Notes: a model not told the origin generated them from the sequence alone. A DNA stretch of 64,000 nt from Candidatus Bathyarchaeota archaeon (GCA_029259355.1 JAPDIZ010000003.1:69181-133180); one strand, 5' to 3'. Shown: positions 3,030 through 63,962, numbered from the stretch's first letter. Translations and numbers: made by a program.

Positions 3030-3686
3030 GTGCTAGAAGAGGGGGCTAAGCTCTTTGGATACGTTCGGGTGGGCGAAAGAGCCTACATAGGGCCTTACAC
3101 GCGCGTATACGGGCCAGCCACAATCGGCGACGATTCCCGCATAGAAGAGTTTTGCCTCATCGGCGTAGAAGCTGCGCGAAAAACATCTTCTAGAGAGAAT
3201 GAGCTCGAAACCTCGATAGGCGAAAAAGTCGTCATCCGCTCACACACAGTAGTTTATGCTGGTTGCCGAATCGATAGTGGGTGCTTCGTGGGGCACAACG
3301 CACTCCTCAGAGAGCATACGGTGCTGGGGAGGAACGTGGTTGTGGGAACAGCTTCCGTCCTAGAGGGCTATTGCTCAGTAGGCGACGAAACCGTTATGCA
3401 GTCTCTTGTATACGTCTGCCGCCACGCAGCCATAGGAAGAGGAGTCTTCATAGGCCCAAACACCGTTTTCCTCAACGACAAGCATCCCCCCTCCAAAAGG
3501 CTAGAAGCTCCGGTAGTGGAGGATGAAGCAGTCATTGGGGGAAACTGCACCATACTCCCAAACGTCAGAGTGGGGAGGGGAGCTTTGGTGGGCGCAGGCT
3601 CTGTCGTAACCAAAGATGTCCCTCCCTACGTGATCGTAGCGGGAAACCCCGCCAAGCCCTTGGGCAAAAGAGAGCTACCTACCTAA
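3030..3686 (+). CDS. hexapeptide-repeat (left-handed beta-helix) acyl/acetyltransferase
   Basis: Repeated [LIV]-G-x-x-x-x hexapeptide pattern across 218 aa (IGDDSRI, VGHNALL, IGGNCTI, VGAGSVV). Confidence 0.7.
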   Translation: MLEEGAKLFGYVRVGERAYIGPYTRVYGPATIGDDSRIEEFCLIGVEAARKTSSRENELETSIGEKVVIRSHTVVYAGCRIDSGCFVGHNALLREHTVLGRNVVVGTASVLEGYCSVGDETVMQSLVYVCRHAAIGRGVFIGPNTVFLNDKHPPSKRLEAPVVEDEAVIGGNCTILPNVRVGRGALVGAGSVVTKDVPPYVIVAGNPAKPLGKRELPT

Positions 3687-14675: not shown

Positions 14676-14690
14676 AGCTGGGCGAGCGCG

Positions 14691-36028: not shown

Positions 36029-37944
36029 CGAAGACCTGATACAGACTCAAAGTCATATGCTTTATCGAGCGCGTTTATTCGGTGCACTGGATATCCTACA
36101 TCGAGTATCCTATCCGTCAGAGGGGTTTTATCCATCTCCACGCGAATCGATTTTACGTAGTAGAAATCGACGAACTCGAGGTTTTGCAAGTTCACATAGC
36201 CTATCCTGCCAGTCCATGGGTCAAAGTAAAAGGGCGAAATGCTGTTCGATGGAAAGGGAGCGCTCCTCCCTAGCCAGTTGATGACTATGAAGTCCCTCTG
36301 AGTTATTCTTACACCAAACATCTCACTACAATACTCGAAGTAGCTGATCGCGTATAGACAAGCCACCACAGTTATCGCCGCGAGTAGAGCGTAGCGAATA
36401 TACCTAGTTGCTGAGCCGAGTAGCTTGAGAACATAGCTTAACCCAACAGCTGCTAGAACGCAGGCAGGCACAGAAGATACGTAGACAAACCGGGGGATGT
36501 CTGGCGTGTCTAGGGGGAACTGCGCGTAGAACAGGCTTTGCTCAGCCAACACGACTGAGGAGAGAAGCCAAAGAACCAATAGCTTTCCTCCATACCCCTC
36601 TTCGAAAAACGCGTAAAAAAGCCCAGCTAACGTGAGCACGAAGACTATAGGCGAGAAGTTGGATACAAAGTCGAACAGAAGCCTGACAGGGACCTCGACC
36701 ACCTCCTCATAGTACATAGACACTCTTCCATAGACTATGAGGTATGTCACAGAAACAACTAACAAGCCCACAAACGCCTTTTTAGCCCAGCTCCAGCGGA
36801 GCCAGCTAGCTTCTTTCCTCGCTGTAAGCACTAAAGCTACAGCCAACATTGCGTAGATGAAAATCGACGCAGGATATGGATGCGTCAGCATCAGCGAAAA
36901 AACCATGATAGCGAGGGGGAGGAGAAGCCTATCGTCTCGCCTCTTCAAGTAGCAGAGGAAGCAGTGAGCAGCGTAAATCGAGAGAGCTACACCCATTAAG
37001 CACTTGTAGAGGTCAGAGGTGTGTCTGAGGATTCCCGGAGAGGTAGCGAAGAAAACCCCGGCAAAGGCCGCGGCTAGCTGGCTGCCAGTGAGCCTGTGGA
37101 CAAGCCCATAAGCCCCCACAGCCCCAAGCGCCATTAACAAAAGCGGCAACAGCTCAACCACCCTTATCCAGTAGGGTTTGTGGAGTGGTTGGAGAAAAGC
37201 GCCAATAGCCTCAAACGTTAGGTGAGCACCTTTGGTCATGAGCGGAAACTCGTGTGGAGAAACCCTATGCTCCAAAGTAGCGATGTAGATGGGTACGTCC
37301 CAGCCTACGGGCGCGTGAAGGCCTACGCTAGCAAATAACCGAGTGCTAACCGCTACAAGCGACACGAGAAAAAGCGGAAGAAACGAGTTCGGTGTAGTTG
37401 GCGAAGCAGTTTGTATAGTTCCTAAAGCGCCTTTCCCCCTATCAACAGCACTTTTCAAAAGAGACGAAAAGGTCCACCAATAAAGAAGCAAGAGCACAAC
37501 CTTGGTGGAAAGCTCGATCATCCAAGGTAACCTAAAGCCAGCTTGTGTTAGAGCAAATTCCACGAGGAAAGAGGGAGCTGCTACAAAGATCCACAGCTGC
37601 TGAATGGGCTTAGCGTTTCTGGGAAAAGCTAGGAGCGCATCACGTAACCAGTTCGGCGCAGCGATCCAGGCAGCTGTATAGATTGTGAAAGCGGCGAGAA
37701 GAGCAACTAGAAGTAGACGGGTAATGCCTCTCTTCAACTGGCGATGAGTTAGCCACCCCAACAGCGCTCCAAATGCTAGCGCAGCAAAGATTATTGAGCA
37801 GCATTGGCTGTGGCCAGGGTATGCGGTAAGGGCAATAGCTCCAGCACCAGTTGGTATCAGCAACAGCAGCCACGCAACTACGTCTATCCATCTTCTCCGC
37901 ACTTTGGATATACACCTGCCATCGCTCGCATAACTGCTCAACAA
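36025..37944 (-). CDS. large polytopic membrane protein, possible GT-C-like glycosyltransferase or polymerase
   Basis: 639 aa, more than 12 predicted TM helices by hydrophobicity, C-terminal soluble region; no diagnostic motif recognised. Confidence 0.4.
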   Translation of the reverse strand: MLSSYASDGRCISKVRRRWIDVVAWLLLLIPTGAGAIALTAYPGHSQCCSIIFAALAFGALLGWLTHRQLKRGITRLLLVALLAAFTIYTAAWIAAPNWLRDALLAFPRNAKPIQQLWIFVAAPSFLVEFALTQAGFRLPWMIELSTKVVLLLLYWWTFSSLLKSAVDRGKGALGTIQTASPTTPNSFLPLFLVSLVAVSTRLFASVGLHAPVGWDVPIYIATLEHRVSPHEFPLMTKGAHLTFEAIGAFLQPLHKPYWIRVVELLPLLLMALGAVGAYGLVHRLTGSQLAAAFAGVFFATSPGILRHTSDLYKCLMGVALSIYAAHCFLCYLKRRDDRLLLPLAIMVFSLMLTHPYPASIFIYAMLAVALVLTARKEASWLRWSWAKKAFVGLLVVSVTYLIVYGRVSMYYEEVVEVPVRLLFDFVSNFSPIVFVLTLAGLFYAFFEEGYGGKLLVLWLLSSVVLAEQSLFYAQFPLDTPDIPRFVYVSSVPACVLAAVGLSYVLKLLGSATRYIRYALLAAITVVACLYAISYFEYCSEMFGVRITQRDFIVINWLGRSAPFPSNSISPFYFDPWTGRIGYVNLQNLEFVDFYYVKSIRVEMDKTPLTDRILDVGYPVHRINALDKAYDFESVSGLR

Positions 37945-38065: not shown

Positions 38066-39019
38066 ATGCGGCGCATCACCATAGCTATCCTCGTCGTGCT
38101 GCTTTCTGCCCTAGTCATCGTTTTGCTGAAGCCCATGGGAGAAGCGGTTAGCAAGCCAGAGCTTGAGTGGAGCAGCGACGTCAAGCCTGGCTCAGGGCCT
38201 GGTCAGCCCCCGCCCGACATGCCTCCCGACGCTGATGGGCCGTGGAATCACCGCATACTGATTGCGTGCTCATCCGATGGGCTATCTTGGCAGAAAAAGT
38301 ACGTAATTTTAGCTGACCAAGCATCTGTTCCAGACGCCATCATCGACAAAGAGGGGAACATACGCGTATACTATTGCGACTACTTCAACGGCGGGATCAC
38401 CGTAGCCATATCCAAAGACGGCGAGAACTGGATCTATAAGCGAGTAAAGGGCTTATCCCCGGAGTGGGCTGACCCAGACGTAGTCATCCTACCCGACGGG
38501 AGGTATAGGCTATACGCTTCATACTTCCCCTTGGTGGGGAGCCAAGACCGCATAGTATCCGCTATCTCAGAAGACGGCATCAACTTCATACCCGAGGAGG
38601 GAAACCGCTATCATGAACCCGGAACTCTGCTAGCCGACCCCGATGTCTTCTGGGCTGGAGACCACTGGGTCATGTTCGTCGATACAGGCGGAGCCTTGAT
38701 CATGCTAACCTCAGAGGATGGGCTCAACTTCACGAAGATTGGGGAATTGGAGCTTGAAGTTGATTCTGGAGGTGTATCTTGCACAATCCCCGTCGAAGGT
38801 GGGTACAGGATATACTTCCACCGCGGCAAGCCTCTTCAAATCTACTCCGCCTTTACATCAGACCTCAAAAACTGGTCAGAGCCAGTGCTCGTGCTTGAGG
38901 CTGGCGAACCCGGGTCACTCGACGAGTTTGGAACCGCGGATCCTGCGGTTGTCAAGCTTCCACAAGGGGGATACCTGATGTTCTACAAAACCTGGATAAA
39001 CCCGCCAAAAAGCCTCTAG
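38066..39019 (+). CDS. secreted BNR/Asp-box repeat beta-propeller protein (putative glycosidase-like)
   Basis: Signal peptide MRRITIAILVVLLSALVIVLL; four Asp-box-like repeats (SSDGLSW, SKDGENW, SEDGINF, SEDGLNF). Confidence 0.6.
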   Translation: MRRITIAILVVLLSALVIVLLKPMGEAVSKPELEWSSDVKPGSGPGQPPPDMPPDADGPWNHRILIACSSDGLSWQKKYVILADQASVPDAIIDKEGNIRVYYCDYFNGGITVAISKDGENWIYKRVKGLSPEWADPDVVILPDGRYRLYASYFPLVGSQDRIVSAISEDGINFIPEEGNRYHEPGTLLADPDVFWAGDHWVMFVDTGGALIMLTSEDGLNFTKIGELELEVDSGGVSCTIPVEGGYRIYFHRGKPLQIYSAFTSDLKNWSEPVLVLEAGEPGSLDEFGTADPAVVKLPQGGYLMFYKTWINPPKSL

Positions 39020-43421: not shown

Positions 43422-45086
43422 CTATCCCCTAACTACGTAGTATGAGCCAATACCCGTATCTGTTATGCGGTTACCCCTAGGCAGGTAAGCCAATATGGGC
43501 ACGTGAGACTCTACCAAAAAGTATCCCCTTCTCCACACCTCGGCTTTGATCACAAGCGTGCTTCCCTCTTCCCAGGGCTGAAGCCTGTACATACACCTAC
43601 ACTTCCCAAACTTCCCTGTGTAGAGCGTGTTTATCCAGTCTCCGCTTTTTACGACGTGAACTTCAGCATCCTGCATAGCCATGCCATGCTGATCTACGTA
43701 ACACCTAATCTCCACGTACTCTCTGTTGCACATTCGAGCAGAGACTTGTACGCCGTAGCAATTTCCAACCGTGTCACGCTTCATAACCCTAATCTCTCTA
43801 GCAACGTATAGAGCTCCCGCTTTGGGGTTGTTGACTCCCAGCTTTTGAAGCAGCAGCATATCCCAGTTGGTGGATTTCGACCAAGAGCTACAGACAGATT
43901 GCGCTGAAAGGTTGCGTAAGATCCTCGTCGCCACCACGTCTTGCTTGAGGTAGAAGCTATAGTTGGACACGTACTCGACGGAGTATGAAACCAGCTCGAC
44001 CCCTAGCACCGCTACCACCAAAAAGGATACCACGAGTGGGGGAACGAGCTTAGCTCTGTTTGGCAGACGCACGCCCCTCTCGTAGAGAAAAGGCCAAAAA
44101 ACCGTAGTCGAAGCAAACAGCGCTATCGGAAGCGAAGCATAACACGCAAGCCTTTCTGGGCTGCCAAAGGTGTAGATCAGCCTAACGTGCATGAGCGAAA
44201 GAGGTATGAGAGCCCAGAGAGCGAGGAAGACCAAAGCCTGCTCGTTTAGCTGCCTTCTCCTCGCAAGAGTAGGGACTGCGAAGAGCGAAGCAACCATCAA
44301 AGCAGCTAAAGACAGTCCGAAAAGGTGGACGTATGGAAAGTAGAGCACGATCGAGGGCTTAGCCCAGACTACTGGAAAGGTGTAGAATCGTACCAAGGCT
44401 TTGGCACAAGCTTCGTAAAGAACTAGGAACAAGGCGAATGCTAATAGGATGGCGGCAAACCCAGCCCTATCTCTCCTCAAAAGCTTGATCGCTGCAGCAT
44501 ACGCCAACACCACTGCGAAGGTGAAGAATAGCGTAGGTGAGTGGGTTATGAGCATTCCTACGATCAAGAGAGCGTAGATAGCCCAAGCTCTTTTCGTAGA
44601 CTCTGACATCGCTATCATCAGAGCAGTAGCTGACAGCATATAGTAAGAGAGTATGAAGGGGTAGAGGCCACAAGCCAGTGCCTCAACCTCGCGAGGCGAT
44701 AGAGCGAGTAACAGAGCCGCTAACCCACCGACTCCATGAGAGCGAGCGAATCTCCTGCCTAGAGCGTAAGCGGGGATAACGAGCAGAGCCGAGGAAACCG
44801 AAGCAAACGCCTTGGTTGCCTCAAAGATTTGGGAGAGGTCTCCGCCTCCCCAAATGGCGGTCGAGAGGCAGAGGAGGATGTGCAGAGCTGGTGGATACCT
44901 CTGCGAGATAGAGAGCTGCTCAGCCGAGAGGCTAGACATACCAAGCATTAGGAAAACGCGCTGTAGGTGAATAGCTGGATCCTCTCCAAGCGGTGGAAGC
45001 GATAGGCAGAGCAAACGCACTCGAATGAAGAGGGCGAGGAGGAAGATCAGCGAGAGCGTGAAGATGGCTTTGCTGGAGCCTCGCAA
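43422..45086 (-). CDS. polytopic membrane protein with C-terminal soluble domain (possible GT-C-like)
   Basis: 554 aa; N-terminal two-thirds strongly hydrophobic; C-terminal roughly 170 aa Cys-containing soluble domain. Confidence 0.4.
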   Translation of the reverse strand: MRGSSKAIFTLSLIFLLALFIRVRLLCLSLPPLGEDPAIHLQRVFLMLGMSSLSAEQLSISQRYPPALHILLCLSTAIWGGGDLSQIFEATKAFASVSSALLVIPAYALGRRFARSHGVGGLAALLLALSPREVEALACGLYPFILSYYMLSATALMIAMSESTKRAWAIYALLIVGMLITHSPTLFFTFAVVLAYAAAIKLLRRDRAGFAAILLAFALFLVLYEACAKALVRFYTFPVVWAKPSIVLYFPYVHLFGLSLAALMVASLFAVPTLARRRQLNEQALVFLALWALIPLSLMHVRLIYTFGSPERLACYASLPIALFASTTVFWPFLYERGVRLPNRAKLVPPLVVSFLVVAVLGVELVSYSVEYVSNYSFYLKQDVVATRILRNLSAQSVCSSWSKSTNWDMLLLQKLGVNNPKAGALYVAREIRVMKRDTVGNCYGVQVSARMCNREYVEIRCYVDQHGMAMQDAEVHVVKSGDWINTLYTGKFGKCRCMYRLQPWEEGSTLVIKAEVWRRGYFLVESHVPILAYLPRGNRITDTGIGSYYVVRG

Positions 45087-53600: not shown

Positions 53601-54452
53601 CACATACTCCCTACACCAGTATAGTGGAAACCTATTGAGTATTTTCGCTAGCAGAACTAGGGCTCTCAACAAGCTCCTCGAAAACCTCCTGTACAGTATC
53701 CAGTCAAAGTTAGCGGAGGTTTTTCGAAAGAGTAGCAGAGCCCACCTATCGCCTCCGAAGAGCTGGGCCAGCTCAGCTTCACCCATAGCTCTATCAGGTG
53801 GGGTGAGCGATCTATCAACCGAGTCCCGGTACTCGTCCTGAAGGCGCTTGATGGCTTCCCTCTTGCGCTCGAGGTGTTTTCTCGCAAGCTTAACCAACCA
53901 CCTCAGAGGCGGTGCCCCCCAAATGGGATCCATCCACTCTTCACGTGGAGCGATAACCACCACCAGCCCGTTGGGCTTAAGCACTCTCCAAACCTCGCTT
54001 ACAACAGTCTCAGCATCGTGGACGTGTTCGAGCATATGGCTGCAGAGCACCACATCCACCGAGTTGCTGCGGATAGGGAGCAGCTCCCCAGGCGAAAGCG
54101 CAAAACAAGCTTCTTTGCAGCGCTTGCTCGCTTGCCGCAGAAGAGCCTTGGAGATGTCCGATCCAAAAAAGCGTGGGGGTTTTTCGCACACAGCAGCTAT
54201 CTCGCTTAGGACAAGCCCCTCTCCGCACCCACAGTCTAAGCAGATTTGGCCATTTCTACCATCAAACACCTTCTTCCAAAGCCTTCGAAAGAAGCCTTGC
54301 CTAACCTCTCGCTCAGCAAGCCTAACGTCTCTAGGAACCTTGTAGTAGACGGTGAGCGCATGGTCGTCTAGCTCCTCATAAGCGCTGTATATGGCTGAGT
54401 ATATCTTGTCGTAAACCTCTACGTGCCTCTTAAGCCTCTTCCCCTGCTTCAA
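53577..54452 (-). CDS. class I SAM-dependent methyltransferase
   Basis: Motif I ICLDCGCGEGLVLS. Confidence 0.7.
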   Translation of the reverse strand: MKQGKRLKRHVEVYDKIYSAIYSAYEELDDHALTVYYKVPRDVRLAEREVRQGFFRRLWKKVFDGRNGQICLDCGCGEGLVLSEIAAVCEKPPRFFGSDISKALLRQASKRCKEACFALSPGELLPIRSNSVDVVLCSHMLEHVHDAETVVSEVWRVLKPNGLVVVIAPREEWMDPIWGAPPLRWLVKLARKHLERKREAIKRLQDEYRDSVDRSLTPPDRAMGEAELAQLFGGDRWALLLFRKTSANFDWILYRRFSRSLLRALVLLAKILNRFPLYWCREYVLIARKHL

Positions 54453-55914
54453 TACTGACCTCCTCTATCCAATACTCTACCACCCAGTAGCCGCTATCGA
54501 ACAACCTGATCTGTCCAGAGCTTGAAGCTGAGCGCTCCACCACCACGTATGCAGGAGGCTTCGTCACATAGCTTGGCGTAAGTGGGTATGCCCACCACCA
54601 ATGCCCCACCCCATATGCGGTGAGAACAGGTTCAGCCCCTCTCTCCACAACAAACGAGTATACCAAGCTCTCCTCCCAAGATATTCCGTAAAAACCCACC
54701 GACTTCTCAACCACTACTCGAGCCATAAGCGTTGCCCAAACCCCTTGGATTAAGATAAGCACCGCGACCAAAGCAAGCGCGAGCACCCAGACCCACCTAG
54801 AGGGGAGAGGAAGGCGCAGAGCCTCCGCTGCATCGCGTAGGAGCAAGGCGAGGGCAAAAATTCCTAGAGTGCTTAAGCAGAGAACGGGGTACGTTAGGTA
54901 CTGGATGAAACGGGCTATGGCATATTCGCCCACAACTCCTGAAGCGATGAGGAGGTGAGGAGCAACCACCCAAGCAGCAATCGCTTCCCTGGCCAAGGAC
55001 GAAGAGCTTTCTCGCTTCATCGCCAAGTAGACCACTCCAAGCATAGCGAGCGCAGTATAGGGGAGGAAGTAGCTTGCGAGGTAGAAGTTTTTCAGTGCCA
55101 AGACTCTCCAATCGCTCACCAAGCCTTTTTTAGGAAGCTGCTCAGCTATGCGAAGCCCACGAACAAGCGATTGAGCAGCTCTCGAAGTCATCGATCTGCT
55201 CTCTACAAACAAGTTAACGCTGTTTACCTCTTGATGCCAAGCATATGCGTAGGCGGTTGCACCTATCAACGCAACCAAAACCCACAGCCAGTCCAGCCGC
55301 TTCTTCGCCAACGCGTAGAGAGTGAGTAGCAAAAGCGTCGAGAAGGCCACAGCGGGGGTGGAGAGGTGCAGAGACCCAGCGAATGAGAGAATCAGGAAGA
55401 CAACTAGGGCTTCTCGAGCGCCAACTCGCTTGCTCGAAACAAATGCAAGGAGAAGGGCTACAAAGAAAAAACCTATGGCTGTTGGGTAGCCTCCCCACGA
55501 ATACACTAACAGATCGTTTATCGAAAGCGCGACGAAGGTGGAGGCGAGGAGAGCAAAGCTTCTTCCCAGCTTAGAGCACAGGCAATACACTGCAAGCACT
55601 GACAAAGAGTTTAGGGTGATGGAGATTAGAGTGAGCGCGGTCAGCGCTTGGAGAGCGTCTAGAGAAGAAGCTGTGGCTACGCAAGCAGCGACCACGTGGA
55701 TTGAAGATGCGTAGACTCTCCACGCATCTATCCAAAAGTACCCAAGCCGATCTACATTCTCTATGGCCAAAACCTGCGAGAGGTGTCTACCCGCATCACT
55801 TCCGCAGCCAGCGTATCCATCGAAGCCGTAGGCTTTCACCGAAAAGCTGAGCACAAGGATTAGGGCTAAAGTTAGCTTGCGCATACATAAGCGCGATCTA
55901 AGCTCTTCAGCCAA
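54430..55914 (-). CDS. polytopic membrane protein with C-terminal soluble domain (possible GT-C-like glycosyltransferase or polymerase)
   Basis: 494 aa, more than 10 hydrophobic helices; 23-nt overlap with the downstream methyltransferase. Confidence 0.4.
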   Translation of the reverse strand: MAEELRSRLCMRKLTLALILVLSFSVKAYGFDGYAGCGSDAGRHLSQVLAIENVDRLGYFWIDAWRVYASSIHVVAACVATASSLDALQALTALTLISITLNSLSVLAVYCLCSKLGRSFALLASTFVALSINDLLVYSWGGYPTAIGFFFVALLLAFVSSKRVGAREALVVFLILSFAGSLHLSTPAVAFSTLLLLTLYALAKKRLDWLWVLVALIGATAYAYAWHQEVNSVNLFVESRSMTSRAAQSLVRGLRIAEQLPKKGLVSDWRVLALKNFYLASYFLPYTALAMLGVVYLAMKRESSSSLAREAIAAWVVAPHLLIASGVVGEYAIARFIQYLTYPVLCLSTLGIFALALLLRDAAEALRLPLPSRWVWVLALALVAVLILIQGVWATLMARVVVEKSVGFYGISWEESLVYSFVVERGAEPVLTAYGVGHWWWAYPLTPSYVTKPPAYVVVERSASSSGQIRLFDSGYWVVEYWIEEVSIEAGEEA

Positions 55915-55972: not shown

Positions 55973-56986
55973 GTGAGACCAGCATTGACTCAAGTGCTTT
56001 TGGCTTTACAACTCCTTGCATCGATGGCTTTATCGTTTGCAGCTACGTACATCCTCGTACCACTAGCCATAGAGAGGCTAACAGCTAGAGGTATCTTCGG
56101 CGTAGATGTCCACAAACCTACTCAGCCCCGAGTGCCAGAGATGGGTGGAGTAGCATTTGTTGGAGGATACCTGCTTGGAATGCTATACCTCCTCACCGCA
56201 TTCCCTGGCTACATAACCCCCATACTGGCTGCGCTTTGCAGCATACTGATGATCTGTTTGATGGGGATGCTTGACGACATACTCGACCTAAGCCAGAGGA
56301 CCAAAGCAACCCTTCCACTAATAGCATCCCTTCCGCTGATAATAGCTGTGAGCAGCGACCGCGCCATGCTCATCCCCCTCATCGGTCGAGTCCAGCTAGG
56401 CCTCATCTACCCCTTCCTCTTGGTTCCCATAGGCGTCACAGCTGCGTCCAACTTAACTAATCTATTAGCAGGGTTCAACGGCTTAGAAGCGGGTATGGGG
56501 ATAATCGCTCTCTCCTCTCTGGTGATATCTGCCCTGTTAATAGGACACGATTTATGCGCAGTGATAGCAGCGCCCATGATCGGCGCACTAGCCGCTTTCT
56601 TCCTCTTCAACCGATACCCAGCTAGGATCTTCCCGGGAAACGCGGGCACCTTCTCGATAGGTGCTGTGGTTGCTGCAGCCGTTATACTGGGCGATATGGA
56701 GGTTATAGGCGTAATATGCCTCATGCCCTACATCATAGAGTTCTTCATCAAAGCAAGAACCAAGTTCAAGGGGGTTTGCTTCGGCGTTCTAAACCCCGAC
56801 GGAACGCTTTCTCCGCCAAGAGGCAAGCACGTCGAGTCCTTAACCCACATCCTCATGCTCAACGGAAGATGCACTGAAAAGGGTTTGGTGTATAGGCTGC
56901 TGCTCATAGAAGCATTCTTTGGCACGATAGCCATAGTTGTAGCTCACTTAAGCCTCTACTTCATTCTACTCAGACCAGTCAGCTAG
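55973..56986 (+). CDS. MraY/WecA-family UDP-HexNAc:polyprenyl-phosphate HexNAc-1-phosphate transferase (AglH-like)
   Basis: MGMLDDILDLS (D-D motif), NLTNLLAGFNGLEAG, FPGNAG; paralog of 12521-13486. Confidence 0.8.
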   Translation: MRPALTQVLLALQLLASMALSFAATYILVPLAIERLTARGIFGVDVHKPTQPRVPEMGGVAFVGGYLLGMLYLLTAFPGYITPILAALCSILMICLMGMLDDILDLSQRTKATLPLIASLPLIIAVSSDRAMLIPLIGRVQLGLIYPFLLVPIGVTAASNLTNLLAGFNGLEAGMGIIALSSLVISALLIGHDLCAVIAAPMIGALAAFFLFNRYPARIFPGNAGTFSIGAVVAAAVILGDMEVIGVICLMPYIIEFFIKARTKFKGVCFGVLNPDGTLSPPRGKHVESLTHILMLNGRCTEKGLVYRLLLIEAFFGTIAIVVAHLSLYFILLRPVS

Positions 56987-56991
56987 TACCA

Positions 56992-57433
56992 GAAGTAGGG
57001 GTTGTTGCAAGCAATCCACGCAAGCTGGAGTATGCTGTAGACGAAGTAGGCAGCGATCAGCGCGTAACTAGCCATGCGCTCACGCAGCGAAGCAGTTTGG
57101 AGCGCACCACAGGCAATGACCATCGCCAGCAGTGGAGTAGCAGCCAGCATGTACCTCGCCTCCTTGTGTATGAATAAGGAGTGTGCAAAGAGCTAGTGCG
57201 AAAGCATTAGCTGAAATAAACCAAGTCTTTTGATCTCCACGTAACAGAGCTATTAGCACAAGGTACAGCGCTGGGCCAAAGATTGCGAAGAAACAGTAGT
57301 AGAAGAACTCTGGGGGAGAGGAGTACTGTATGAGCAAAACCTGCTCTGTGTTTAGGTTAAAGGTTAGGAAGCGCCAAGGTGACTTAAACGGAACTCCATA
57401 AACCACGTAATCTAAGAGAGCTTGAATTGCCAT
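56992..57433 (-). pseudogene. frameshifted small membrane protein gene (possibly GtrA-like)
   Basis: One frame gives MAIQALLDYVVYGVPF...LLIHTQGG (57080-57433); a different frame continues ...EARYMLAATPLLAMVIACGALQTAS...MASYALIAAYFVYSILQLAWIACNNPYFW to a stop near 56992. Both halves are hydrophobic and protein-like. Confidence 0.4.
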
Positions 57434-57982
57434 AGCTACCGAGAAGCCAGCGACATAGGGAAAAGCAGCTTTGGAGAAGCGGTGAAGCTGGGGTTTAAAG
57501 AGGCTAGAGGAGACATAATCGTCCCAGTGATGAGGGATAGATCCGATATCCCTAAGCTACTGAAAGCTGTTCTCTCAGGCTACGACATAGCCATAGGCTC
57601 GAGGTTCATCAAGGGATCCAAGCTCGTAGGCCACCCGAGGTGGAAGCTATCCGCCAACAGGCTATACAACGCTTTGCTAATGGTTGTTACGGGGAGGAGG
57701 ATATCCGACTTCACCAACGCCTTCAAAGCATACAAAGGGGAAGTGCTAGATGGGATTAACCCAAGCTCGAGAAGCTTCGACATAACAGCGGAAATCGCGC
57801 TGAAGGCTGTGTTCATGGGAGCAAGAATGGTCGAAGTTCCCGTAGAGTGGAGAGGAAGAAGCAAAGGAGAGGCTAAGTTTAAGCTAACCGTTGGAGCAAG
57901 CTACCTCGCTACGCTGCTCAGGGTTTGGGTAGAGGGAATTGTGGGTAGAGCCTTATCCAAAGCTCGACGAGTTGTGTGGTGA
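57422..57982 (+). pseudogene. 5'-truncated GT2 (Dpm1-like) glycosyltransferase remnant
   Basis: Aligns to residues about 75 onward of the GT2 at 16059-16808 (GEAVKLGFKEARGD vs GEGTARIEGFNRS); the N-terminal nucleotide-binding region is absent and the catalytic MDADLSHPP position reads MRDRSDIP. Confidence 0.5.
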
Positions 57983-58080
57983 ATAGCCCTCTGCAAAGCG
58001 GTAGTTAAGCTGAGTCGAGGAAAAGCTCTTTTGAATGATGCGGGTTTTACGCTTATGCAAGGGGGAAGGCGAAGCTGTCC

Positions 58081-59136
58081 AAAGTAGTCATAACTGGAGG
58101 ATTAGGCTTCATAGGCTTCAACTTCGCTACGCACTTCCTCAGAAGCTATCGAGAAGACGGTGTAGAGGTCGTGTTAGTCGACAACTTATCGGATCCGAGC
58201 GGGGGAGCTTACAAAAACATGGTAACGCTTCTCAGACACCATGGAGAGGATGTTGAGAAGGGTTTGCTGAGGATCGTTCCAACAGATGTGAGAGATTTTG
58301 AAGCTCTTCGCCAGACGTTGAGAGATGCAGACACCGTCCTACACTTCGCTGCTCAAGTAGCTATGAAGCCCTCGCTCGAAGACCCCATAACCGATTTTGA
58401 GATAAACGCGCGCGGAACGCTAAACGTCTTAGAAGCTGCGAGGAGATCGGAATCGAACCCCGTGATGCTCTACACCTCAACTAACAAGGTGTATGGACGG
58501 CTCGATAGAGTACCACTAGTGGAGAAGGAGCTTCGCTGGGACTACTCAGAGGATTCGCCATACTATGAGGGAATTACCGAGGATTACCCGCTCGACATAG
58601 GAGGGCCTTACGGCATAAGCAAGTGCGCAGGCGACATGTACTTTCGAGAATACGCCAAAACCTACGGCATGAAGACCATAGTCTTCCGTATGTCAGCCGT
58701 ATATGGTGAGAACCAGTACACAACCGAAGTACACGGCTGGGTTGGGTGGGTTATCTCGCGAGCGCTTTTGAAAAAGCCCCTAACCATATTCGGCGATGGA
58801 AAACAGGTTCGTGGAGTGTTGCACGTGCAAGACCTAATCGAAGCGTTTGAGCTTGCGCAAAAAAACATCAACCGAGTTAGGGGTGAGGCATTCAACATAG
58901 GGGGAAACCGCCGAAACTCTCTCTCCATCCTCGAGCTGCTCAAGCTGCTCAAGGAGAGATACGGCGTCGCTCCCTCTGAGGTTAGGTATGCGAATTGGAG
59001 AAAAGTGGATCAGAAGTGCTTCATAGCTAACTGCCGAAAAGCTTTGGAGTACTTTGGGTGGAGGCAGAAGATAAGTAAGGAAGAAGGCATCGACCGGATG
59101 ATCGCTTGGGTTCGGCAAAACATCGCCGATAGCTAG
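58081..59136 (+). CDS. NAD-dependent nucleotide-sugar epimerase/dehydratase (paralog of 30705-31847), no canonical start codon for the Rossmann motif
   Basis: Frame-1 translation from 58081 gives KVVITGGLGFIGFNFATHFL...; Y-x3-K (YGISKCAGD); first in-frame ATG/GTG/TTG is GTG at 58171, after the Rossmann motif. Confidence 0.7.
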   Translation, partial: KVVITGGLGFIGFNFATHFLRSYREDGVEVVLVDNLSDPSGGAYKNMVTLLRHHGEDVEKGLLRIVPTDVRDFEALRQTLRDADTVLHFAAQVAMKPSLEDPITDFEINARGTLNVLEAARRSESNPVMLYTSTNKVYGRLDRVPLVEKELRWDYSEDSPYYEGITEDYPLDIGGPYGISKCAGDMYFREYAKTYGMKTIVFRMSAVYGENQYTTEVHGWVGWVISRALLKKPLTIFGDGKQVRGVLHVQDLIEAFELAQKNINRVRGEAFNIGGNRRNSLSILELLKLLKERYGVAPSEVRYANWRKVDQKCFIANCRKALEYFGWRQKISKEEGIDRMIAWVRQNIADS

Positions 59137-60587
59137 CGAACCAGCTTCTCATATTTTCTCAGCCACTTGATAATTCGAGGTTCTAGAGGAAGCTTGAGGA
59201 AGCGCGTCTTCCACCGAATACTCTCGATTTTGCCCAAAGCCTCTAAAAGAACTCCGAGAGATTTCTTCGAAACCTTGTGCTTTAAGCTGGGGTGGTGTAC
59301 TAGCCACGTGATGAAGCACAGCTCCTCCAACATTTCTCCATACTCTTTGGTGAGCCAAGGGGAAACCGCAACGTCGTATGAGAAGAACGCCCACTCCTCC
59401 AAGCTCCTTGGCTCCCTTAAACCGTGTTTGAGCGAGAACTCATAGAGAGGAGTCCCTGGGTATGGTGTGTAGATGAAGAGGGAGAGGTGAGATTCTGGGT
59501 TGATTTCGCGAAGCTTCTCCATAACCCTGATCGTCATGTAGACATCACCGTAGGTTTCGCCGGGAAAACCAACCATGAAAGAGTATTCGGGAACGATGCC
59601 GAATTTCTTGCACTTCTCCGCAGACCTCAGGATATCGCTTACCGTTATGTCCTTCTTGATGAGCTCAAGTATTCTAGGGGATCCAGATTCTGCGCCTAGA
59701 AGCAGAGAGCGGCAGCCGCTTCTGCTAATCCAGCCCATAAGCTCATCGCTAAAACCCGCTACATAGTCGCATCTGCAGCTCGCGCTCCAACCAATGTCCA
59801 AACCCTCCTCAACAATGCCTCTGCATATCTCAACAACTCTTCTTCTGTCCACGAAGAAGTTGTCGTCTTGGAAGCGAACACCCTTGATGCGGTAGCGCCA
59901 AACGAGGCTCTTCAGCTCCTCAACAACTCTCCTCGACGATAGGGGAAACCACTTTCTGCCATAGAAACGAGATATCGCGCAAAACGCGCAGCGATGCACA
60001 CACCCACGGCTCGTTATGTAGTCTAAGGTTTTGTCAGAAGCTTCATCTTTAACGCAGTATTTCTCAACGTTGATTAAGTGGTAGGCAAGCGGGGGAAACT
60101 TATTCACATCCTCCAGCAGCCTCTCGGGATTATGCTGAACTTCTCTACCATACTTGTAAGATAAGCCTAGCAACCCCTTTAGCTCGTCTCCCTTCTCTAG
60201 CCGCTGCACAAGCTCTAGTAGCGTAAGCTCTCCTTGCCCTCTCACCACAGCATCTACCAAGGGGTGGCTAACTGTCTGCTCAGGAAGAAGCGTTGGGTGG
60301 AAGCCTCCCCAGACGACAAAGGCTCCCTGCTCCTTCGCGGCAGCCGAAGCAGCCAAGCCGTCTCTGATTTGAAAGCCCGTCATCGAGCTTACTCCAATGC
60401 AGAGAGCGGAGCGCGATAGCTTCCTGATGGTATGCTCAAAGTCATCATCCAGCCTAGCGTCTACTATTTCCACCTCATAACCTGCTTTCTCGAGAACAGG
60501 TGCTAGCGCTAACAGCGAAAGGGGGGCTCTGTTGACCGGAACCCCAGTTCGGGGATAGAAGAGAACTACCCTCCCGCTCAAGCCCAA
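59133..60587 (-). CDS. B12-binding-domain radical SAM enzyme (class B radical SAM)
   Basis: N-terminal cobalamin-binding-like domain (VVLFYPRTG...EVEIVDARLDD); radical SAM CxxxCxxC (CVHRCAFCAIS); 484 aa. Confidence 0.8.
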   Translation of the reverse strand: MGLSGRVVLFYPRTGVPVNRAPLSLLALAPVLEKAGYEVEIVDARLDDDFEHTIRKLSRSALCIGVSSMTGFQIRDGLAASAAAKEQGAFVVWGGFHPTLLPEQTVSHPLVDAVVRGQGELTLLELVQRLEKGDELKGLLGLSYKYGREVQHNPERLLEDVNKFPPLAYHLINVEKYCVKDEASDKTLDYITSRGCVHRCAFCAISRFYGRKWFPLSSRRVVEELKSLVWRYRIKGVRFQDDNFFVDRRRVVEICRGIVEEGLDIGWSASCRCDYVAGFSDELMGWISRSGCRSLLLGAESGSPRILELIKKDITVSDILRSAEKCKKFGIVPEYSFMVGFPGETYGDVYMTIRVMEKLREINPESHLSLFIYTPYPGTPLYEFSLKHGLREPRSLEEWAFFSYDVAVSPWLTKEYGEMLEELCFITWLVHHPSLKHKVSKKSLGVLLEALGKIESIRWKTRFLKLPLEPRIIKWLRKYEKLVR

Positions 60588-60632: not shown

Positions 60633-60851
60633 CTAAAGATAGCCAAGCGCTCTCAGCCTTCGCTTTATCTCTTCTTCCTCCTCCGGGCTATAGGGATACT
60701 CTTCACCCTCTTCTTCTTTGAGGAGTTCGGTGAGCACGAACTCGATAAACTCTTCTACGTCTTTGAAAGCTCCCTCACTTTCCTTGACTTTCTCCTCAAT
60801 TTTTTGGTAAAGCGATTTGGGGATGGATATAGTTACCTTCTCTGCGCTCAT
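60633..60851 (-). CDS. small ribbon-helix-helix-like protein with acidic C-terminal tail
   Basis: KVTISIPKSLYQKIEEKV (RHH-like strand/helix) followed by a Glu-rich tail; start overlaps the cysC stop by 4 nt. Confidence 0.5.
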   Translation of the reverse strand: MSAEKVTISIPKSLYQKIEEKVKESEGAFKDVEEFIEFVLTELLKEEEGEEYPYSPEEEEEIKRRLRALGYL

Positions 60852-61402
60852 CCTCGCACCATCCTTGGAGGCTCTTCTATGTACCCAAGGTTTTTCAAAG
60901 TTTCCAAAATCTTCTCCACACAGCTGTCTGGGCTTTCAGCTTCCGTATCCAGTACGACCTCGGGGTTCTCTGGCTCCTCGTACACGTCCTGTATACCAGT
61001 CATATCGCTTATCTCACCCCTTAAGGCTCTTCTGTACAAGCCCTTGGGGTCTCTGCGGATGCAAGTTTCTAGAGAGCACTTAACGTATACCTCGACAAAG
61101 TCTTTGATGAGTTCTCTGGCAAACCTCCTCACCGAGCGGTAGGGCGAGACAAACGATGCGATAACCACAACTCCGTTGCGAGCTAATAGGTGGCTGACGT
61201 ATGCTACTCTGCGGAGGTGCCTCTCCCGATCCTCTCTGCTAAAGCCCGCCTCAGGGCTAAGCCACTTCCTCACCTCATCCCCATCCAAAACCTCTACGGG
61301 GAAGCCATAGGTTCTCAGCACGGGCTCAAGCTTCCTAGCTATGGTAGTCTTTCCAGAGCTAGGAAGCCCGGTCAGCCAGATGACGAAGCCACGGCGCATC
61401 AC
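60848..61402 (-). CDS. cysC: adenylylsulfate (APS) kinase
   Basis: P-loop GLPSSGKTT; ASFVSPY; DPKGLYRRALRGEI...TGIQDVYEEP; 184 aa. Confidence 0.9.
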   Translation of the reverse strand: MMRRGFVIWLTGLPSSGKTTIARKLEPVLRTYGFPVEVLDGDEVRKWLSPEAGFSREDRERHLRRVAYVSHLLARNGVVVIASFVSPYRSVRRFARELIKDFVEVYVKCSLETCIRRDPKGLYRRALRGEISDMTGIQDVYEEPENPEVVLDTEAESPDSCVEKILETLKNLGYIEEPPRMVRG

Positions 61403-62790
61403 ACAGCCTCCACTAGGGACCGCCCCCTCAACCCAATAGGTTTCTCCAAACCAAAGAGCTCGAAAAGGGTGGGGGCTATGTCGTAGATAGATGCGCTCCT
61501 CCTCCCTTGACTTATCCTTCCCTCGGGGTCGTGCAGTATGTATACTCCGTGCATTGAGTGTACTGCATCATCTGGGCCTATGTCGTTTTCCGGAAGATAC
61601 ATGGTTCCATGGCCAAGCGTGCCCGCTGACCTCCAGTAGAGGTCGTCGAAGTAGACGAGGAGATCTGGGTAATCCCCCGATACGGTGGAGTAGAGCTGCT
61701 CAGGCTTGTAGACCTTAGTTTCCATTCTCCTACCGCTTGGATCGTCTATTTTTCGAAGCTCATCAGCTAGCTCCTCCCTAAAAGATTCGTAGCTGCTGGG
61801 GTCTATAACACCCCTAGGCTCTCTTCCCCTGACGTTGATGAAGATTCTTGCGTAGTATCCTCCCCACCCCCATGCCTTGGTGCGATCCCAGTCTACGGAT
61901 AGCTTTTCTAGGTCTACGACGCCCCCTGGCTTATGCTTGATGACCAAGTATCCCTTTTCGATGAGCCATTCGTTGACGCAGAAAGCACCCCTCATCCCCT
62001 TCGCTCCATGGTCTGAAACAACCAAGATGAGCACATCTTTTCCAACCACCTTCAAGAGCTCAGCGATTTTCTGGTCAACATACTTGTAGTAGTCTTCGAT
62101 AACGTGCTCAAACTCGTTTCCCGGAGTGTAGAGGTGGTGCGTAGGGTCGAAGAACTTCCAAAACGCGTGGTGGACACGATCAACACCGATCTCAACGAAC
62201 ATGAAGAAATCCCACTTTTTGCGCGAAGCCAAGTGGTTTATCGCCTTAAAGTGCAGATCCGTCATGTGATACAGCTCTCGAAGAAGCCGTTTCCGCTGCT
62301 CAGTCCTAAACTCCACATCAAAGACATACTTCTCGCCAATTACCCTCTCGATCTCAAATCTAAGCAGTGAGGGGTAGGTGTACTGCTTATCAGCTGAGGG
62401 AGTTATGAAGCAAGACACCCAGCACCCCTTGACAGGCTTTGGTGGATATCCTGGAGGCACGCTTACTATGCAAGAGCGCATTCCTCTCTTCGAAAGCTCG
62501 TCCCAAACAGCGGGGTACTTGACGCTATGGGAGTTCACGATGTATGTCTCGTCATAGGAACCCAGCTTCCTATGCCTAAAGCCATACATCCCAAGCTCTC
62601 CAGGCTCTCTCCCAGTAGCCATAACGATCCACGCGGGAATCGTTATTGGAGGATGACAACTCTCCAAAGAGCCGTAGAAGCCCCCATCCATCAAGGAGGA
62701 TATGGTTGGCAGAGAATCTCTAAACCTCTCGAAAACCAGCTCTGGAGGAGCACAGTCTAAGCCAATCACCAAAACTCTATTGCTCCTCAT
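61399..62790 (-). CDS. alkaline-phosphatase-superfamily enzyme (type I phosphodiesterase / nucleotide pyrophosphatase-like), function unknown
   Basis: N-terminal VLVIGLDCAPPEL and mid-protein LILVVSDHGA resemble metal-ligand motifs of the PF01663-like alkaline phosphatase fold (from memory); 4-nt overlap with cysC. Confidence 0.55.
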   Translation of the reverse strand: MRSNRVLVIGLDCAPPELVFERFRDSLPTISSLMDGGFYGSLESCHPPITIPAWIVMATGREPGELGMYGFRHRKLGSYDETYIVNSHSVKYPAVWDELSKRGMRSCIVSVPPGYPPKPVKGCWVSCFITPSADKQYTYPSLLRFEIERVIGEKYVFDVEFRTEQRKRLLRELYHMTDLHFKAINHLASRKKWDFFMFVEIGVDRVHHAFWKFFDPTHHLYTPGNEFEHVIEDYYKYVDQKIAELLKVVGKDVLILVVSDHGAKGMRGAFCVNEWLIEKGYLVIKHKPGGVVDLEKLSVDWDRTKAWGWGGYYARIFINVRGREPRGVIDPSSYESFREELADELRKIDDPSGRRMETKVYKPEQLYSTVSGDYPDLLVYFDDLYWRSAGTLGHGTMYLPENDIGPDDAVHSMHGVYILHDPEGRISQGRRSASIYDIAPTLFELFGLEKPIGLRGRSLVEAV

Positions 62791-62795
62791 CTAAT

Positions 62796-63962
62796 TCACT
62801 CCACAAAGGGCTTTTCGTAAGATAGCAGAACCTCAGCAACCTCTGGCCTAACCATGTAGGGCGGGGGTCGCTCCCTCCTGCTTATCAATTCCCTAAGCTT
62901 GGTGCCGCTAAACCTTACCCTAAGCTCCTCGCTATGCGGGCATATCTTCTCATTAACTATCCCGCCGCACTTTTCGCAGTAGAGGAACTCTCTGAAGAAG
63001 AGGGGGACTATGCCTAGGTCTGGGAACTGCTTGAAAATCTCCTGAGCCTCATATGGCCCGTAGTAGTTACCTACGCCTGCGTGGTCTCTACCCACGATGA
63101 AGTGCGTACACCCAAAGTTCTTCCTCATTATGGCGTGGTGAACAGCCTCTCTCGGCCCAGCGTAGCGCATTTGATACCGCAATATGCTCAAAACGACGGT
63201 GTCTTTCGGGAAGTAGTTCTTGGTGAGGACATCGTAAGCTCTCAAAATGACTTCGTCGCGAAAATCCCCTCTCTTCTTCCTACCTATCACTGGGTTTATG
63301 AATAGGCCATCTACGAAGGCTAGCGCCGACTTCTGGAGGTACTCGTGGCCGAGGTGGGGGGCGTTTCTCGTCTGAAAGCCCACGACCGTCCTCCAACCCC
63401 TCTCCCTAAACAAAACTCTCGTCTCAATAGGTCGGAGAGTGTAGCGGTAGAAGGGGTTTGGCGCTTCTCCAATGAGCTCTATTTCCCCTCCAATCAGCAG
63501 CTCCTTCGCTGAATAAAGCTTAGCCACACCAGGGTGGTTTGCATCCCGTGTCTTGAACACCTTCTCCGCGTACTCACCCCTATCCCAAGGATAAACCTCC
63601 TCAACGCGGAGAACTGCAAGAGGTGTTTCGCTAAAGAAGAGAGCAGCTTCATCACCCTCCCTAAGCTCGCCCAAATCCTCCTTAGAGACATCGAGGACTA
63701 TAGGGATAGTCCAAGGAAGACCATTCAGCAACCTCATCTCATAGAGAACGCTCTCAAGCTCATCTCGGCACAAAAAGCCCGTCAACGGGCTGTATATCCC
63801 ATGACCAATGTTCTCGAGGTCTAGGGCGTGATCCTCATCTACGTATATCCTATGCATTTCCCTAGACTCGATTAGTAGGCGCTGAAGCCTAGCTCCCTTG
63901 GCGACGCGAACCACCAACGAGCCGCCGTGAGGCTTCGACACCAAGCTCTCCGCAGCCTCCAC
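62796..63962 (-). CDS. sat: sulfate adenylyltransferase (ATP sulfurylase)
   Basis: QTRNAPHLGHEYL and VGRDHAGVG motifs; N-terminal PUA-like domain; 388 aa. Confidence 0.9.
   Translation of the reverse strand: MEAAESLVSKPHGGSLVVRVAKGARLQRLLIESREMHRIYVDEDHALDLENIGHGIYSPLTGFLCRDELESVLYEMRLLNGLPWTIPIVLDVSKEDLGELREGDEAALFFSETPLAVLRVEEVYPWDRGEYAEKVFKTRDANHPGVAKLYSAKELLIGGEIELIGEAPNPFYRYTLRPIETRVLFRERGWRTVVGFQTRNAPHLGHEYLQKSALAFVDGLFINPVIGRKKRGDFRDEVILRAYDVLTKNYFPKDTVVLSILRYQMRYAGPREAVHHAIMRKNFGCTHFIVGRDHAGVGNYYGPYEAQEIFKQFPDLGIVPLFFREFLYCEKCGGIVNEKICPHSEELRVRFSGTKLRELISRRERPPPYMVRPEVAEVLLSYEKPFVE

Follow-up and report, generated by a model that had tools for sequence, protein, structure and literature searches.

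A gene cassette in a 64,000-nucleotide stretch of DNA from a Candidatus Bathyarchaeota archaeon (GCA_029259355.1, JAPDIZ010000003.1:69181-133180; the whole stretch is hereafter called the window) places an enzyme of the alkaline-phosphatase (AP) superfamily, here termed AlkP, between ATP sulfurylase (Sat) and adenosine 5′-phosphosulfate (APS) kinase (CysC), the two enzymes predicted to make 3′-phosphoadenosine 5′-phosphosulfate (PAPS). A gene for a 72-residue protein follows cysC. Gene order and gene fusions in both domains mark a link between AlkP and PAPS synthesis, and we put at about even the chance that AlkP is a non-canonical PAPS-dependent sulfotransferase on a nucleotide pyrophosphatase/phosphodiesterase (NPP) scaffold, serving as the PAPS-consuming step of the module. 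An earlier note on this DNA, made from its sequence, had suggested that the middle reading frame could be an unconventional transferase. Fusions of AlkP to Sat, CysC, a family 2 glycosyltransferase (GT2) and a methyltransferase, its co-occurrence with a phosphatase for 3′-phosphoadenosine 5′-phosphate (PAP), and the precedent of the archaeal proteins Agl30 and Agl31 all argue for that suggestion.

Conservation of the cassette in archaea and bacteria

Sat exceeded two curated NCBIfam cut-offs (NF003166, 532.8 bits against 387; TIGR00339, 387.4 bits against 322.95) and CysC a third (TIGR00455, 214 bits against 138.7), and their genes, adjacent and co-directional, form a PAPS-synthesis operon. 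All four open reading frames (ORFs) read here by the earlier note are present and tightly packed on the minus strand, and its placement of the middle one in the AP superfamily was borne out by a match to the type I phosphodiesterase/nucleotide pyrophosphatase family (PF01663, 'Phosphodiest'; 162 bits, cut-off 23, residues 6-395). Its description of 4-nt overlaps holds at two of the three junctions: the AlkP stop codon overlaps the cysC start in GTGTGATG (4 nt with the GTG start, 1 nt with ATG), and the cysC stop and the start of the 72-residue ORF share the 4 nt ATGA, whereas a 5-nt gap separates the sat stop codon from the AlkP ATG.

A protein search with AlkP returned more than 6,000 significant matches, the best 120 of which were 55-81% identical and came from Bathyarchaeia, Asgard lineages, Hydrothermarchaeota, Nitrososphaerales, Methanomethylicota, Hecatella and bacteria; the closest named relatives belong to Hecatellales, Methanomethylicota and metagenome-assembled genomes of Bathyarchaeia (60-64% identity). 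Clustered at 50% identity, the wider family comprises 19,058 representatives at E ≤ 1e-3 and 5,173 at E ≤ 1e-30, with more distant paralogs included. Scanning one genome per species located at least 586 AlkP loci. Our counts rest on the best 80, with gene presence scored by tblastn using the window proteins and the view limited to 10 kb on either side of AlkP. These 80 loci span about 15 lineages, both archaeal (Hecatellales, Methanomethylicota, Bathyarchaeia, Njord-, Hermod- and Promethearchaeota, Nitrososphaerota, Archaeoglobi, Thermoplasmata, Thermofilaceae and Desulfurococcales) and bacterial (Aminicenantes, Chloroflexota, Omnitrophota, Zixibacteria, Latescibacterota and Armatimonadota).

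When synteny was checked across these relatives, the cassette order recurred in archaea and bacteria alike. Immediately 3′ of AlkP (<250 nt, same strand) lies cysC in 65 of the 80 loci, sat stands immediately 5′ (<150 nt) in 50, and the full sat-AlkP-cysC order is kept in 44; with such counts, the arrangement is far beyond chance. In the 57 loci that extend 2.5 kb or more to either side, cysC was found within 2.5 kb of AlkP in 52, sat in 44 and a homolog of the 72-residue protein in 37. In 14 of the 80 loci cysC adjoins AlkP without sat nearby, and the AlkP-cysC adjacency persists where sat is absent, in Archaeoglobi and Nitrososphaerota. Median identities to the window proteins over the 80 loci were similar for AlkP (54%), Sat (56%) and CysC (52%), and AlkP therefore evolves as slowly as its two partners.

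The association extends to covalent fusion. Pfam analysis revealed Sat-AlkP fusions (P0134, and 863-aa ORFs in seven Chloroflexota loci), a CysC-AlkP fusion (P0142), an AlkP-GT2 fusion (P0136, in a locus ordered sat-cysC-AlkP::GT2) and an AlkP-methyltransferase fusion (P0248); AlkP-CysC fusions occur as P0045 and P0058 (Pfam-confirmed) and in loci L021 and L051. Because it is joined to Sat, CysC, GT2 and a methyltransferase, AlkP bridges synthesis of the donor and assembly of the glycan. At least 15 loci contain further AP-superfamily paralogs within 10 kb (PF01663 or PF00884; 24-31% identical or less similar), with three in L018, a clustering that would be expected if the superfamily supplies sulfotransferases.

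Fold and active site of AlkP

AlkP gave no meaningful match among the NCBIfam models, and a sequence search of the PDB with AlkP found no detectable relative; a profile of the AlkP family reached Xac NPP at E 5.6e-4. An AlphaFold2 model computed with 36 homologs (predicted local distance difference test 94.5, predicted template modelling score 0.93) displays the NPP-type α/β core, and its nearest folds are nucleotide pyrophosphatases (Xac NPP, ENPP4 and ENPP1). About 335 of the 463 residues align with NPP structures, and an insertion of about 120 residues forms a cap. This AP-type fold is distinct from the P-loop-like sulfotransferase fold with its 5′-phosphosulfate-binding (5′-PSB) and 3′-phosphate-binding (3′-PB) motifs (PF00685, PF03567, PF13469 and relatives), from the known PAP phosphatases (CysQ, DHH-type MtPAPP and the PHP type) and from family I, family II and membrane pyrophosphatases. 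Likewise, AlkP falls outside the sulfatase/arylsulfatase-like subfamily of the Agl30/Agl31 type. Thus, of the relatives named in the earlier note, the AP superfamily stands, whereas the sulfatase, EptA and LtaS clades give way to the NPP clade with a Thr nucleophile.

Residue conservation was taken from an alignment of 36 orthologs (mean column identity 68%), in which D12, T50 (within PPITIPAW), D204, H208, D260, H261 and H411 are invariant. In alignment, T50 corresponds to the nucleophile of Xac NPP and D260/H261 to its DHG motif, and the remaining metal ligands can be placed by motif order, giving AlkP a predicted two-metal ligand set (Asp, Asp/His, Asp/His, His) together with the Thr nucleophile. 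Also invariant, or nearly so, is a second set comprising R72, H73, R205, K212, K264, R315, R323, R387, E401, N402, D403, D407 and D408. Paralogs of AlkP encoded in the same loci have retained the metal site and a nucleophilic Ser or Thr and lack most of this second set, which suggests that it marks a substrate site specific to the AlkP orthologous group; its basic character would fit a polyanionic nucleotide. Cys127 is invariant, and the phosphoryl-contacting Asn of Xac NPP aligns with F71/R72. No signal peptide or transmembrane segment was detected in AlkP, and since the protein opens directly with the first core β-strand, it is predicted to be cytoplasmic.

PAP phosphatases accompany AlkP

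A gene for a DHH-family protein lies between sat and AlkP in L002, L005, L025 and L057 and heads a DHH-AlkP-cysC unit in L061, L075 and L078, preceded in the last two by a small ribbon-helix-helix (RHH) gene. The encoded protein is clearly orthologous to the PAP phosphatase that has been characterised biochemically in M. thermolithotrophicus, with which it aligns over its full length (PDB 8A8K, E 1.3e-83). Because a PAP phosphatase is encoded within the unit in these seven loci, PAP must be produced in the cassette, and because the same enzyme adjoins AlkP there, AlkP is not needed to remove it; AlkP is the sole unassigned enzyme in such cassettes. A further candidate is a PHP protein in L093, encoded 3′ of an AlkP-pyruvate kinase (PK)-Sat fusion, which resembles 3′,5′-nucleoside bisphosphate phosphatase (182 bits, below the cut-off of 400). 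The one DHH gene of the window itself (3675-4847, minus strand) was considered as a PAP phosphatase and rejected: its product is RecJ/GAN-like (PDB 7bhi, E 1.6e-23; 5ghr, E 8.5e-22) and only 29% identical to the PAP phosphatase ortholog over 139 residues.

A Pfam scan of 57 ORFs of at least 150 aa spanning the window found no PAPS/APS reductase, sulfite reductase or classical sulfotransferase, and a six-frame motif scan of the window found no 5′-PSB sulfotransferase motif, in agreement with the absences listed in the earlier note. PAPS reductase, sulfite reductase and classical sulfotransferase genes were equally absent from nine Pfam-annotated neighbourhoods (L081, L083, L085-L089, L093 and L094). 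No paralog of AlkP was found elsewhere in the window.

Glycan biosynthesis genes surround the cassette

The large glycosylation locus described in the earlier note was recovered by Pfam, with its glycosyltransferase, nucleotide-sugar and short-chain dehydrogenase/reductase (SDR) genes. It encodes three nucleoside triphosphate (NTP) transferases, a phosphohexomutase, GT2 and GT4 enzymes, two AglH-type GT4 enzymes (PF00953), a UDP-sugar dehydrogenase, a DegT aminotransferase, SDR dehydratases/epimerases and methyltransferases, and is split by a branched-chain amino-acid ABC transporter. In sister strains (98.7-99.1% nucleotide identity), a GT2 gene, a flippase gene, sat, AlkP, cysC, the 72-aa gene and a radical S-adenosylmethionine (SAM) gene follow one another on a single strand.

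Similar surroundings recur elsewhere. Genes near the cassette in L081/82, L083/84, L085-L088, L089-92, L093 and L094 encode Wzx-type flippases, GT2, GT4 and GT22 glycosyltransferases, polysaccharide deacetylases, UDP-sugar dehydrogenases, NTP transferases and SDRs. In L057 a unit ordered rhh-sat-PAP phosphatase-AlkP-cysC-TauE precedes the oligosaccharyltransferase gene aglB (STT3 160 bits, AglB core 111.8, AglB_L1 84.1). Aminicenantes loci continue from cysC to a TviC-like SDR and, in some cases, two UDP-sugar dehydrogenases, and in Promethearchaeota the cassette abuts a heptose-type pathway, as assigned from reading the sequences. In the window and in these loci, AlkP genes are located in glycan or N-glycosylation clusters; nucleotide-sugar enzymes are the most frequent neighbours of AlkP, and an SDR is the commonest extra neighbour (29 of the 80 loci). 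Overall, the lack of reductive genes in the window and the nine neighbourhoods, and the glycan loci of unrelated lineages, support the earlier proposal that PAPS is made here for sulfation, not for assimilation.

Proposed mechanism and alternatives

Our proposed scheme, the simplest we find to account for every observation, runs as follows. Sat would make APS and CysC would convert it to PAPS, as their homology above curated cut-offs predicts. AlkP would consume PAPS, moving the sulfuryl group to a sugar hydroxyl with release of PAP, and transfer would probably proceed through a covalent sulfo-Thr50 intermediate at the two-metal site, by analogy with LtaS and EptA. The acceptor is probably conserved, perhaps a nucleotide sugar or a lipid-linked first sugar, as suggested by an AlkP that evolves as slowly as Sat and CysC and by the prevalence of nucleotide-sugar enzymes among its neighbours. 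PAP would be removed by a separate PAP phosphatase, encoded in the cassette in some lineages and not in the window. The sulfated sugar would then enter the glycan made by the surrounding glycosyltransferases and be exported by the flippase encoded 5′ of sat in the sister strains. The 72-residue protein may be a regulator or adaptor whose acidic tail probably docks on one of the enzymes.

In a more elaborate variant, which we regard as distinctly unlikely, AlkP would be the hub of a metabolon. It would form sulfo-threonine from PAPS and pass the sulfuryl group to a universal acceptor or to paralogous AP enzymes; its partners (CysC, Sat-AlkP, paralogs and the RHH protein) would be recruited by the EEEExIKxRLRALGYL tail, the RHH protein would couple enzyme occupancy to transcription, and a PK barrel would replace CysC in some lineages.

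Several considerations weigh against a sulfotransferase. For every member of the family the proposed activity is derived by comparison, and we know of no characterised precedent for sulfuryl transfer at an NPP-type site with a Thr nucleophile. Glycan sulfotransferases normally diverge with their acceptors, and a strict 1:1 association with 50-64% identity across domains is unusual for such enzymes; the conservation of AlkP would suit an enzyme with a housekeeping role alongside Sat and CysC equally well or better. These genomes could also encode a classical sulfotransferase elsewhere, outside the 10 kb viewed on either side of AlkP. The best precedents, Agl30 and Agl31, are sulfatase-like proteins of PF00884 for which no sulfate donor is named, whereas AlkP belongs to the NPP clade of PF01663. 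Finally, some distant family members occur in other contexts, such as P0173, which lies in a phosphonate-type cluster with phosphoenolpyruvate (PEP) mutase and LicD.

The main rival, unlikely in our judgement, is that AlkP acts as an inorganic pyrophosphatase or a pyrophosphate (PPi)-consuming phosphotransferase that pulls the highly unfavourable Sat reaction, so that the cassette would be a three-activity PAPS synthase and the sulfotransferase would lie elsewhere. The position of AlkP between sat and cysC, its fusion to Sat in Chloroflexota, its rate of evolution equal to theirs and the many basic residues of its active site all fit this role, and fusions of AlkP to a pyruvate-kinase barrel, with or without Sat, suit a theme of energetic support. 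Eukaryotic fusions of APS kinase (APK), ATP sulfurylase (ATPS) and pyrophosphatase provide a direct precedent (PMC4220642), and an assay of archaeal ATPS and APS kinase (APSK) was rate-limited by PPi removal (PMC10322725). However, AlkP tracks cysC and not sat, as the 14 loci with cysC adjacent and sat missing illustrate. The modules of Archaeoglobi consist of CysC, AlkP and a PAP phosphatase, and the CysC step makes no PPi; a pyrophosphatase would have no task there because Sat is absent, which weakens the analogy with the eukaryotic fusions. Neither the GT2 and methyltransferase fusions nor the swarms of paralogs in glycan loci would be expected of such an enzyme, and no known pyrophosphatase has a fold like that of AlkP, which is NPP-like and capped by an insertion of about 120 residues.

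The other alternatives appear weaker still. Were AlkP a phospho- or phosphono-headgroup transferase, or a phosphodiesterase, that decorates glycans from some non-PAPS donor, it would be tied to sat and cysC by no more than co-regulation in surface-glycan loci; we hold this very unlikely, since co-regulation cannot explain covalent fusions to both Sat and CysC, the 65 of 80 adjacencies across two domains, or minimal DHH-AlkP-cysC modules outside obvious glycan clusters. We give slightly less credence to a nucleotide 3′-phosphatase that would detoxify PAP in place of CysQ or trim PAPS back to APS. The DHH PAP phosphatase beside AlkP in seven loci, and the below-threshold PHP protein in another, would leave two PAP phosphatases in a five-gene unit, a redundancy that led us to down-weight this role, and the GT2 and methyltransferase fusions would go unexplained; among the options in the earlier note, PAP handling is accordingly the least likely. 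A comparably small probability attaches to an APS/PAPS pyrophosphatase, in which a classical NPP attack on the 5′-phosphate would release sulfate as a safety valve or proof-reader for activated sulfate, adenylyl-molybdate or adenylyl-selenate. The closest folds to AlkP are indeed Xac NPP, ENPP4 and ENPP1, and ecto-NPPs can hydrolyse APS and PAPS, but a product hydrolase fused to the enzymes that synthesise its substrate would create a futile cycle, APS hydrolysis would leave the co-encoded PAP phosphatase without a source of PAP, and AlkP is only 13-17% identical to NPPs, with F71/R72 at the position of the phosphoryl-contacting Asn of Xac NPP. Least probable of all is transfer of sulfate from PAPS to a thiol, which would make AlkP a non-canonical PAPS reductase supplying the sulfite for sulfonated sugars, sulfoquinovose for example. 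UDP-sulfoquinovose synthases belong to the SDRs and require sulfite, and the frequency of SDR neighbours, TauE/SafE ('sulfite exporter' family) genes 3′ of cysC in several archaeal loci and the invariant Cys127 are all compatible with this route. The neighbouring SDRs, however, score 44-51 bits against a UDP-sulfoquinovose synthase cut-off of 575 and instead resemble 4,6-dehydratases or UDP-uronate 4-epimerases, and no recurrent thioredoxin or other redox partner was seen near the cassette.

The small 72-residue protein and its mobile tail

The earlier note had labelled the small ORF as RHH. The window protein itself has no Pfam or NCBIfam match up to E 0.01, and the label draws weak support from its homologs: a family profile built from 23 of them matches the RHH domain of NikR weakly (E 0.044, positions 7-48), and five of the 23 match PF01402 (best E 1e-3). 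A β-strand (TVSIP) followed by two helices gives the N-terminal half a weak resemblance to RHH proteins. Homologs are usually encoded 5′ of sat.

The C-terminal tail carries a motif (Table 1) in which L66, L69 and Y71 are invariant and R65 and G70 are at least 90% conserved; it matched no known motif. The same tail ends CysC in loci of Chloroflexota, Omnitrophota and Zixibacteria (L059, L060, L068, L072, L080, L047 and L062), most of which lack the small gene. It also ends the Sat-AlkP fusion of L063 (8549-11461), the PK domain of P0217, and an AlkP paralog and a sulfatase-like protein in L026 (at 13873-15807 and 11951-13339), and the C-termini of other AlkP paralogs are related basic/acidic helices. 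A docking peptide could account for this complementary pattern: it might hold the proteins of the pathway to one another, or link a DNA-binding domain to an enzyme. Overall, the tail looks like a docking or regulatory module.

Divergent family members and a candidate importer

In a divergent branch of the family, a pyruvate-kinase barrel (PF00224, 243-248 bits) occupies the position of cysC, with no cysC within 8 kb. P0217 (L096, 4297-6657) is an AlkP::PK fusion in the order sat, 75-aa ORF, AlkP::PK, and P0172 (L093, 7459-10914) is an AlkP-PK-Sat triple fusion. The PK-like domain may regenerate ATP or stand in for APS kinase. P0173 (L095, 8001-10175) fuses an NTP transferase to AlkP and lies beside genes for PEP mutase, LicD, aminotransferases and a CTP-transferase/PPDK_N protein, surroundings that look like a cluster for a phosphonate-decorated glycan. 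The wider AlkP family may therefore also transfer other nucleotide-activated anionic headgroups.

The archaeal cassettes repeatedly include a fifth gene, for a TauE/SafE membrane protein (PF01925, 155 bits in L057), which is encoded 3′ of cysC in L002, L003, L006, L011, L057 and L058 and between sat and AlkP in L087 (9192-9950); no such gene was found in the window. It may be the sulfate importer of the module.

Genes flanking the cassette in the window

Table 1. Features of the cassette and its immediate neighbours in the window
Feature	Position	Strand	Basis or remark
sat, ATP sulfurylase (homo-oligomeric type; PUA-like and ATP-sulfurylase domains), 388 aa	62796-63962	minus	PF01747, E 1.6e-91; PF14306 (PUA_2), E 1.8e-50
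AlkP, NPP-type AP-superfamily enzyme, 463 aa; candidate PAPS-dependent sulfotransferase	61399-62790	minus	PF01663
cysC, APS kinase, 184 aa (183 with ATG start)	60848-61402	minus	PF01583, E 1e-57
72-aa protein, putative RHH N-terminal half and acidic/amphipathic C-terminal tail	60633-60851	minus	homologs in about 50 of 80 loci
Tail motif [YF][ST]xEEEExIKxRL[RK]ALGY[LI], residues 55-72 of the 72-aa protein	60636-60689	minus	
B12-binding radical SAM gene	59133-60587	minus	PF02310 and PF04055; co-directional with the cassette
SDR sugar-nucleotide dehydratase/epimerase	58084-59136	plus	PF01370/PF16363; convergent with the radical SAM gene

The B12-radical SAM gene begins 45 nt downstream of the 72-residue ORF. 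The adjacency pointed out in the earlier note is real, but the gene does not belong to the conserved unit: tblastn gave weak partial matches in two of the 80 loci, and it was rejected as a cassette member. Its product falls below every NCBIfam equivalog cut-off (best HpnJ, 140.9 bits against 577.6). B12-radical SAM genes also occur near the cassette in Hecatella and L093, so that three unrelated lineages have one (the window; L081, 562-2031; L093, 11753-13300) and most loci do not. The gene is a lineage-specific accessory, and the enzyme may C-methylate or otherwise modify the same glycan.

The best NCBIfam match of the window SDR, below cut-off, is dTDP-glucose 4,6-dehydratase; at 44.5 bits it falls far short of the UDP-sulfoquinovose synthase cut-off (575) and was rejected as such an enzyme. 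Its Rossmann motif VVITGGLGFIGFNF lies 5′ of the first canonical start codon (58036-58171), and because GTA at 58084 replaces the GTG of the near-identical strain L089, the start codon appears to have been lost in the window strain, or a non-canonical start is used. At about 57458-57472 (ORF fragments 56983-57982), the window lacks about 1.2 kb present in the sister strains L089, L090 and L091, where it carries the 5′ end of a GT2 gene and the greater part of a GT22/PMT_2 gene; the breakpoints share 15 nt. The GT2 and SDR genes of contig L092 are truncated as in the window. The glycan locus thus shows strain-level decay or variation beside an intact cassette.

Five ORFs of the glycan locus (317-746 aa; 36025-37944, 38066-39019, 43422-45086, 54430-55914 and 17887-20127) have no Pfam match. 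The 494-aa ORF among them remains beside an AglH-type glycosyltransferase gene in the sister strains and in L085.

Discussion

Canonical sulfotransferases that would account for sulfate on glycans, lipids or metabolites are often absent from archaea and from many uncultured bacteria. Jespersen et al. (2023) noted methanogens that encode ATPS, APSK and PAP phosphatase without sulfate assimilation and suggested that they may use a 'non-canonical sulfo-transferase' in a so far uncharted pathway (PMC10322725). The cassette described here is a concrete and widely distributed candidate for that postulated archaeal enzyme; a literature search found no paper describing the sat-AlkP-cysC cassette or a function for COG3379. 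If AlkP is a sulfotransferase, the NPP scaffold, with its two metals and Thr nucleophile, would represent a novel enzymatic route to sulfuryl transfer, and sulfated surface structures would become predictable from genomes of Asgard archaea, Bathyarchaeia, Nitrososphaerota, Aminicenantes and Chloroflexota. If it is instead a dedicated pyrophosphatase, the cassette would represent a new three-enzyme prokaryotic PAPS synthase.

The nearest functional parallel comes from Halobacterium salinarum, the source of the first archaeal glycan sulfotransferases, Agl30 (VNG1056C) and Agl31 (VNG1057C). Using gene deletions and heterologous expression in Hfx. volcanii, Zaretsky et al. (2025) demonstrated that they sulfate the N-glycan; both are sulfatase-like proteins assigned to IPR017850 (PMC11980604). 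PAPS or another sulfate donor for them is mentioned neither there nor in the follow-up paper of 2025. In Hfx. volcanii, Agl7 has been implicated in sulfating DolP-hexose. Agl30, Agl31 and AlkP share an AP-like core, an archaeal glycan or N-glycosylation locus, action on the cytoplasmic side (predicted for AlkP) and the lack of a canonical sulfotransferase fold, and they would share a role in sulfating sugars of surface glycans, which for AlkP is a proposal. AP-superfamily sulfotransferases have been recognised only recently, and as a candidate member AlkP is notable for its breadth and its fusion to PAPS synthesis.

The M. thermolithotrophicus operon, which encodes ATPS, APSK, a DHH-type PAP phosphatase and an APS reductase (APSR)-like PAPS reductase (PMC10322725), has the same types of Sat and CysC as our cassette, and its PAP phosphatase has orthologs in the seven related loci. 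That operon serves assimilation, whereas the window and the nine annotated AlkP neighbourhoods have a glycan synthesis context and no reductase gene. The eukaryotic APK-ATPS-pyrophosphatase fusions of diatoms, haptophytes and oomycetes (PMC4220642) likewise join a third enzyme domain to the two PAPS-synthesis activities. There the added domain is a pyrophosphatase of the family I type, whose thermodynamic role is plain; in contrast, AlkP has an NPP fold, tracks CysC more than Sat and is also fused to a glycosyltransferase.

With regard to the scaffold itself, AlkP is 13-17% identical to NPPs (Xanthomonas NPP and ENPP1, 3, 4, 6 and 7) and differs from them in its cap insertion. Classical NPPs are secreted or ecto-enzymes, whereas AlkP is predicted to be cytoplasmic and has a ring of Arg, Lys, His and Asp residues that is invariant and peculiar to its family. 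Unlike NPPs, its gene companions are PAPS-synthesis genes, among which hydrolysis would be futile. As the mechanistic model for AlkP we take LtaS, EptA and MCR-1. In these transferases a Thr on the AP core serves as the nucleophile, and an anionic headgroup reaches its acceptor by way of a covalent enzyme intermediate.

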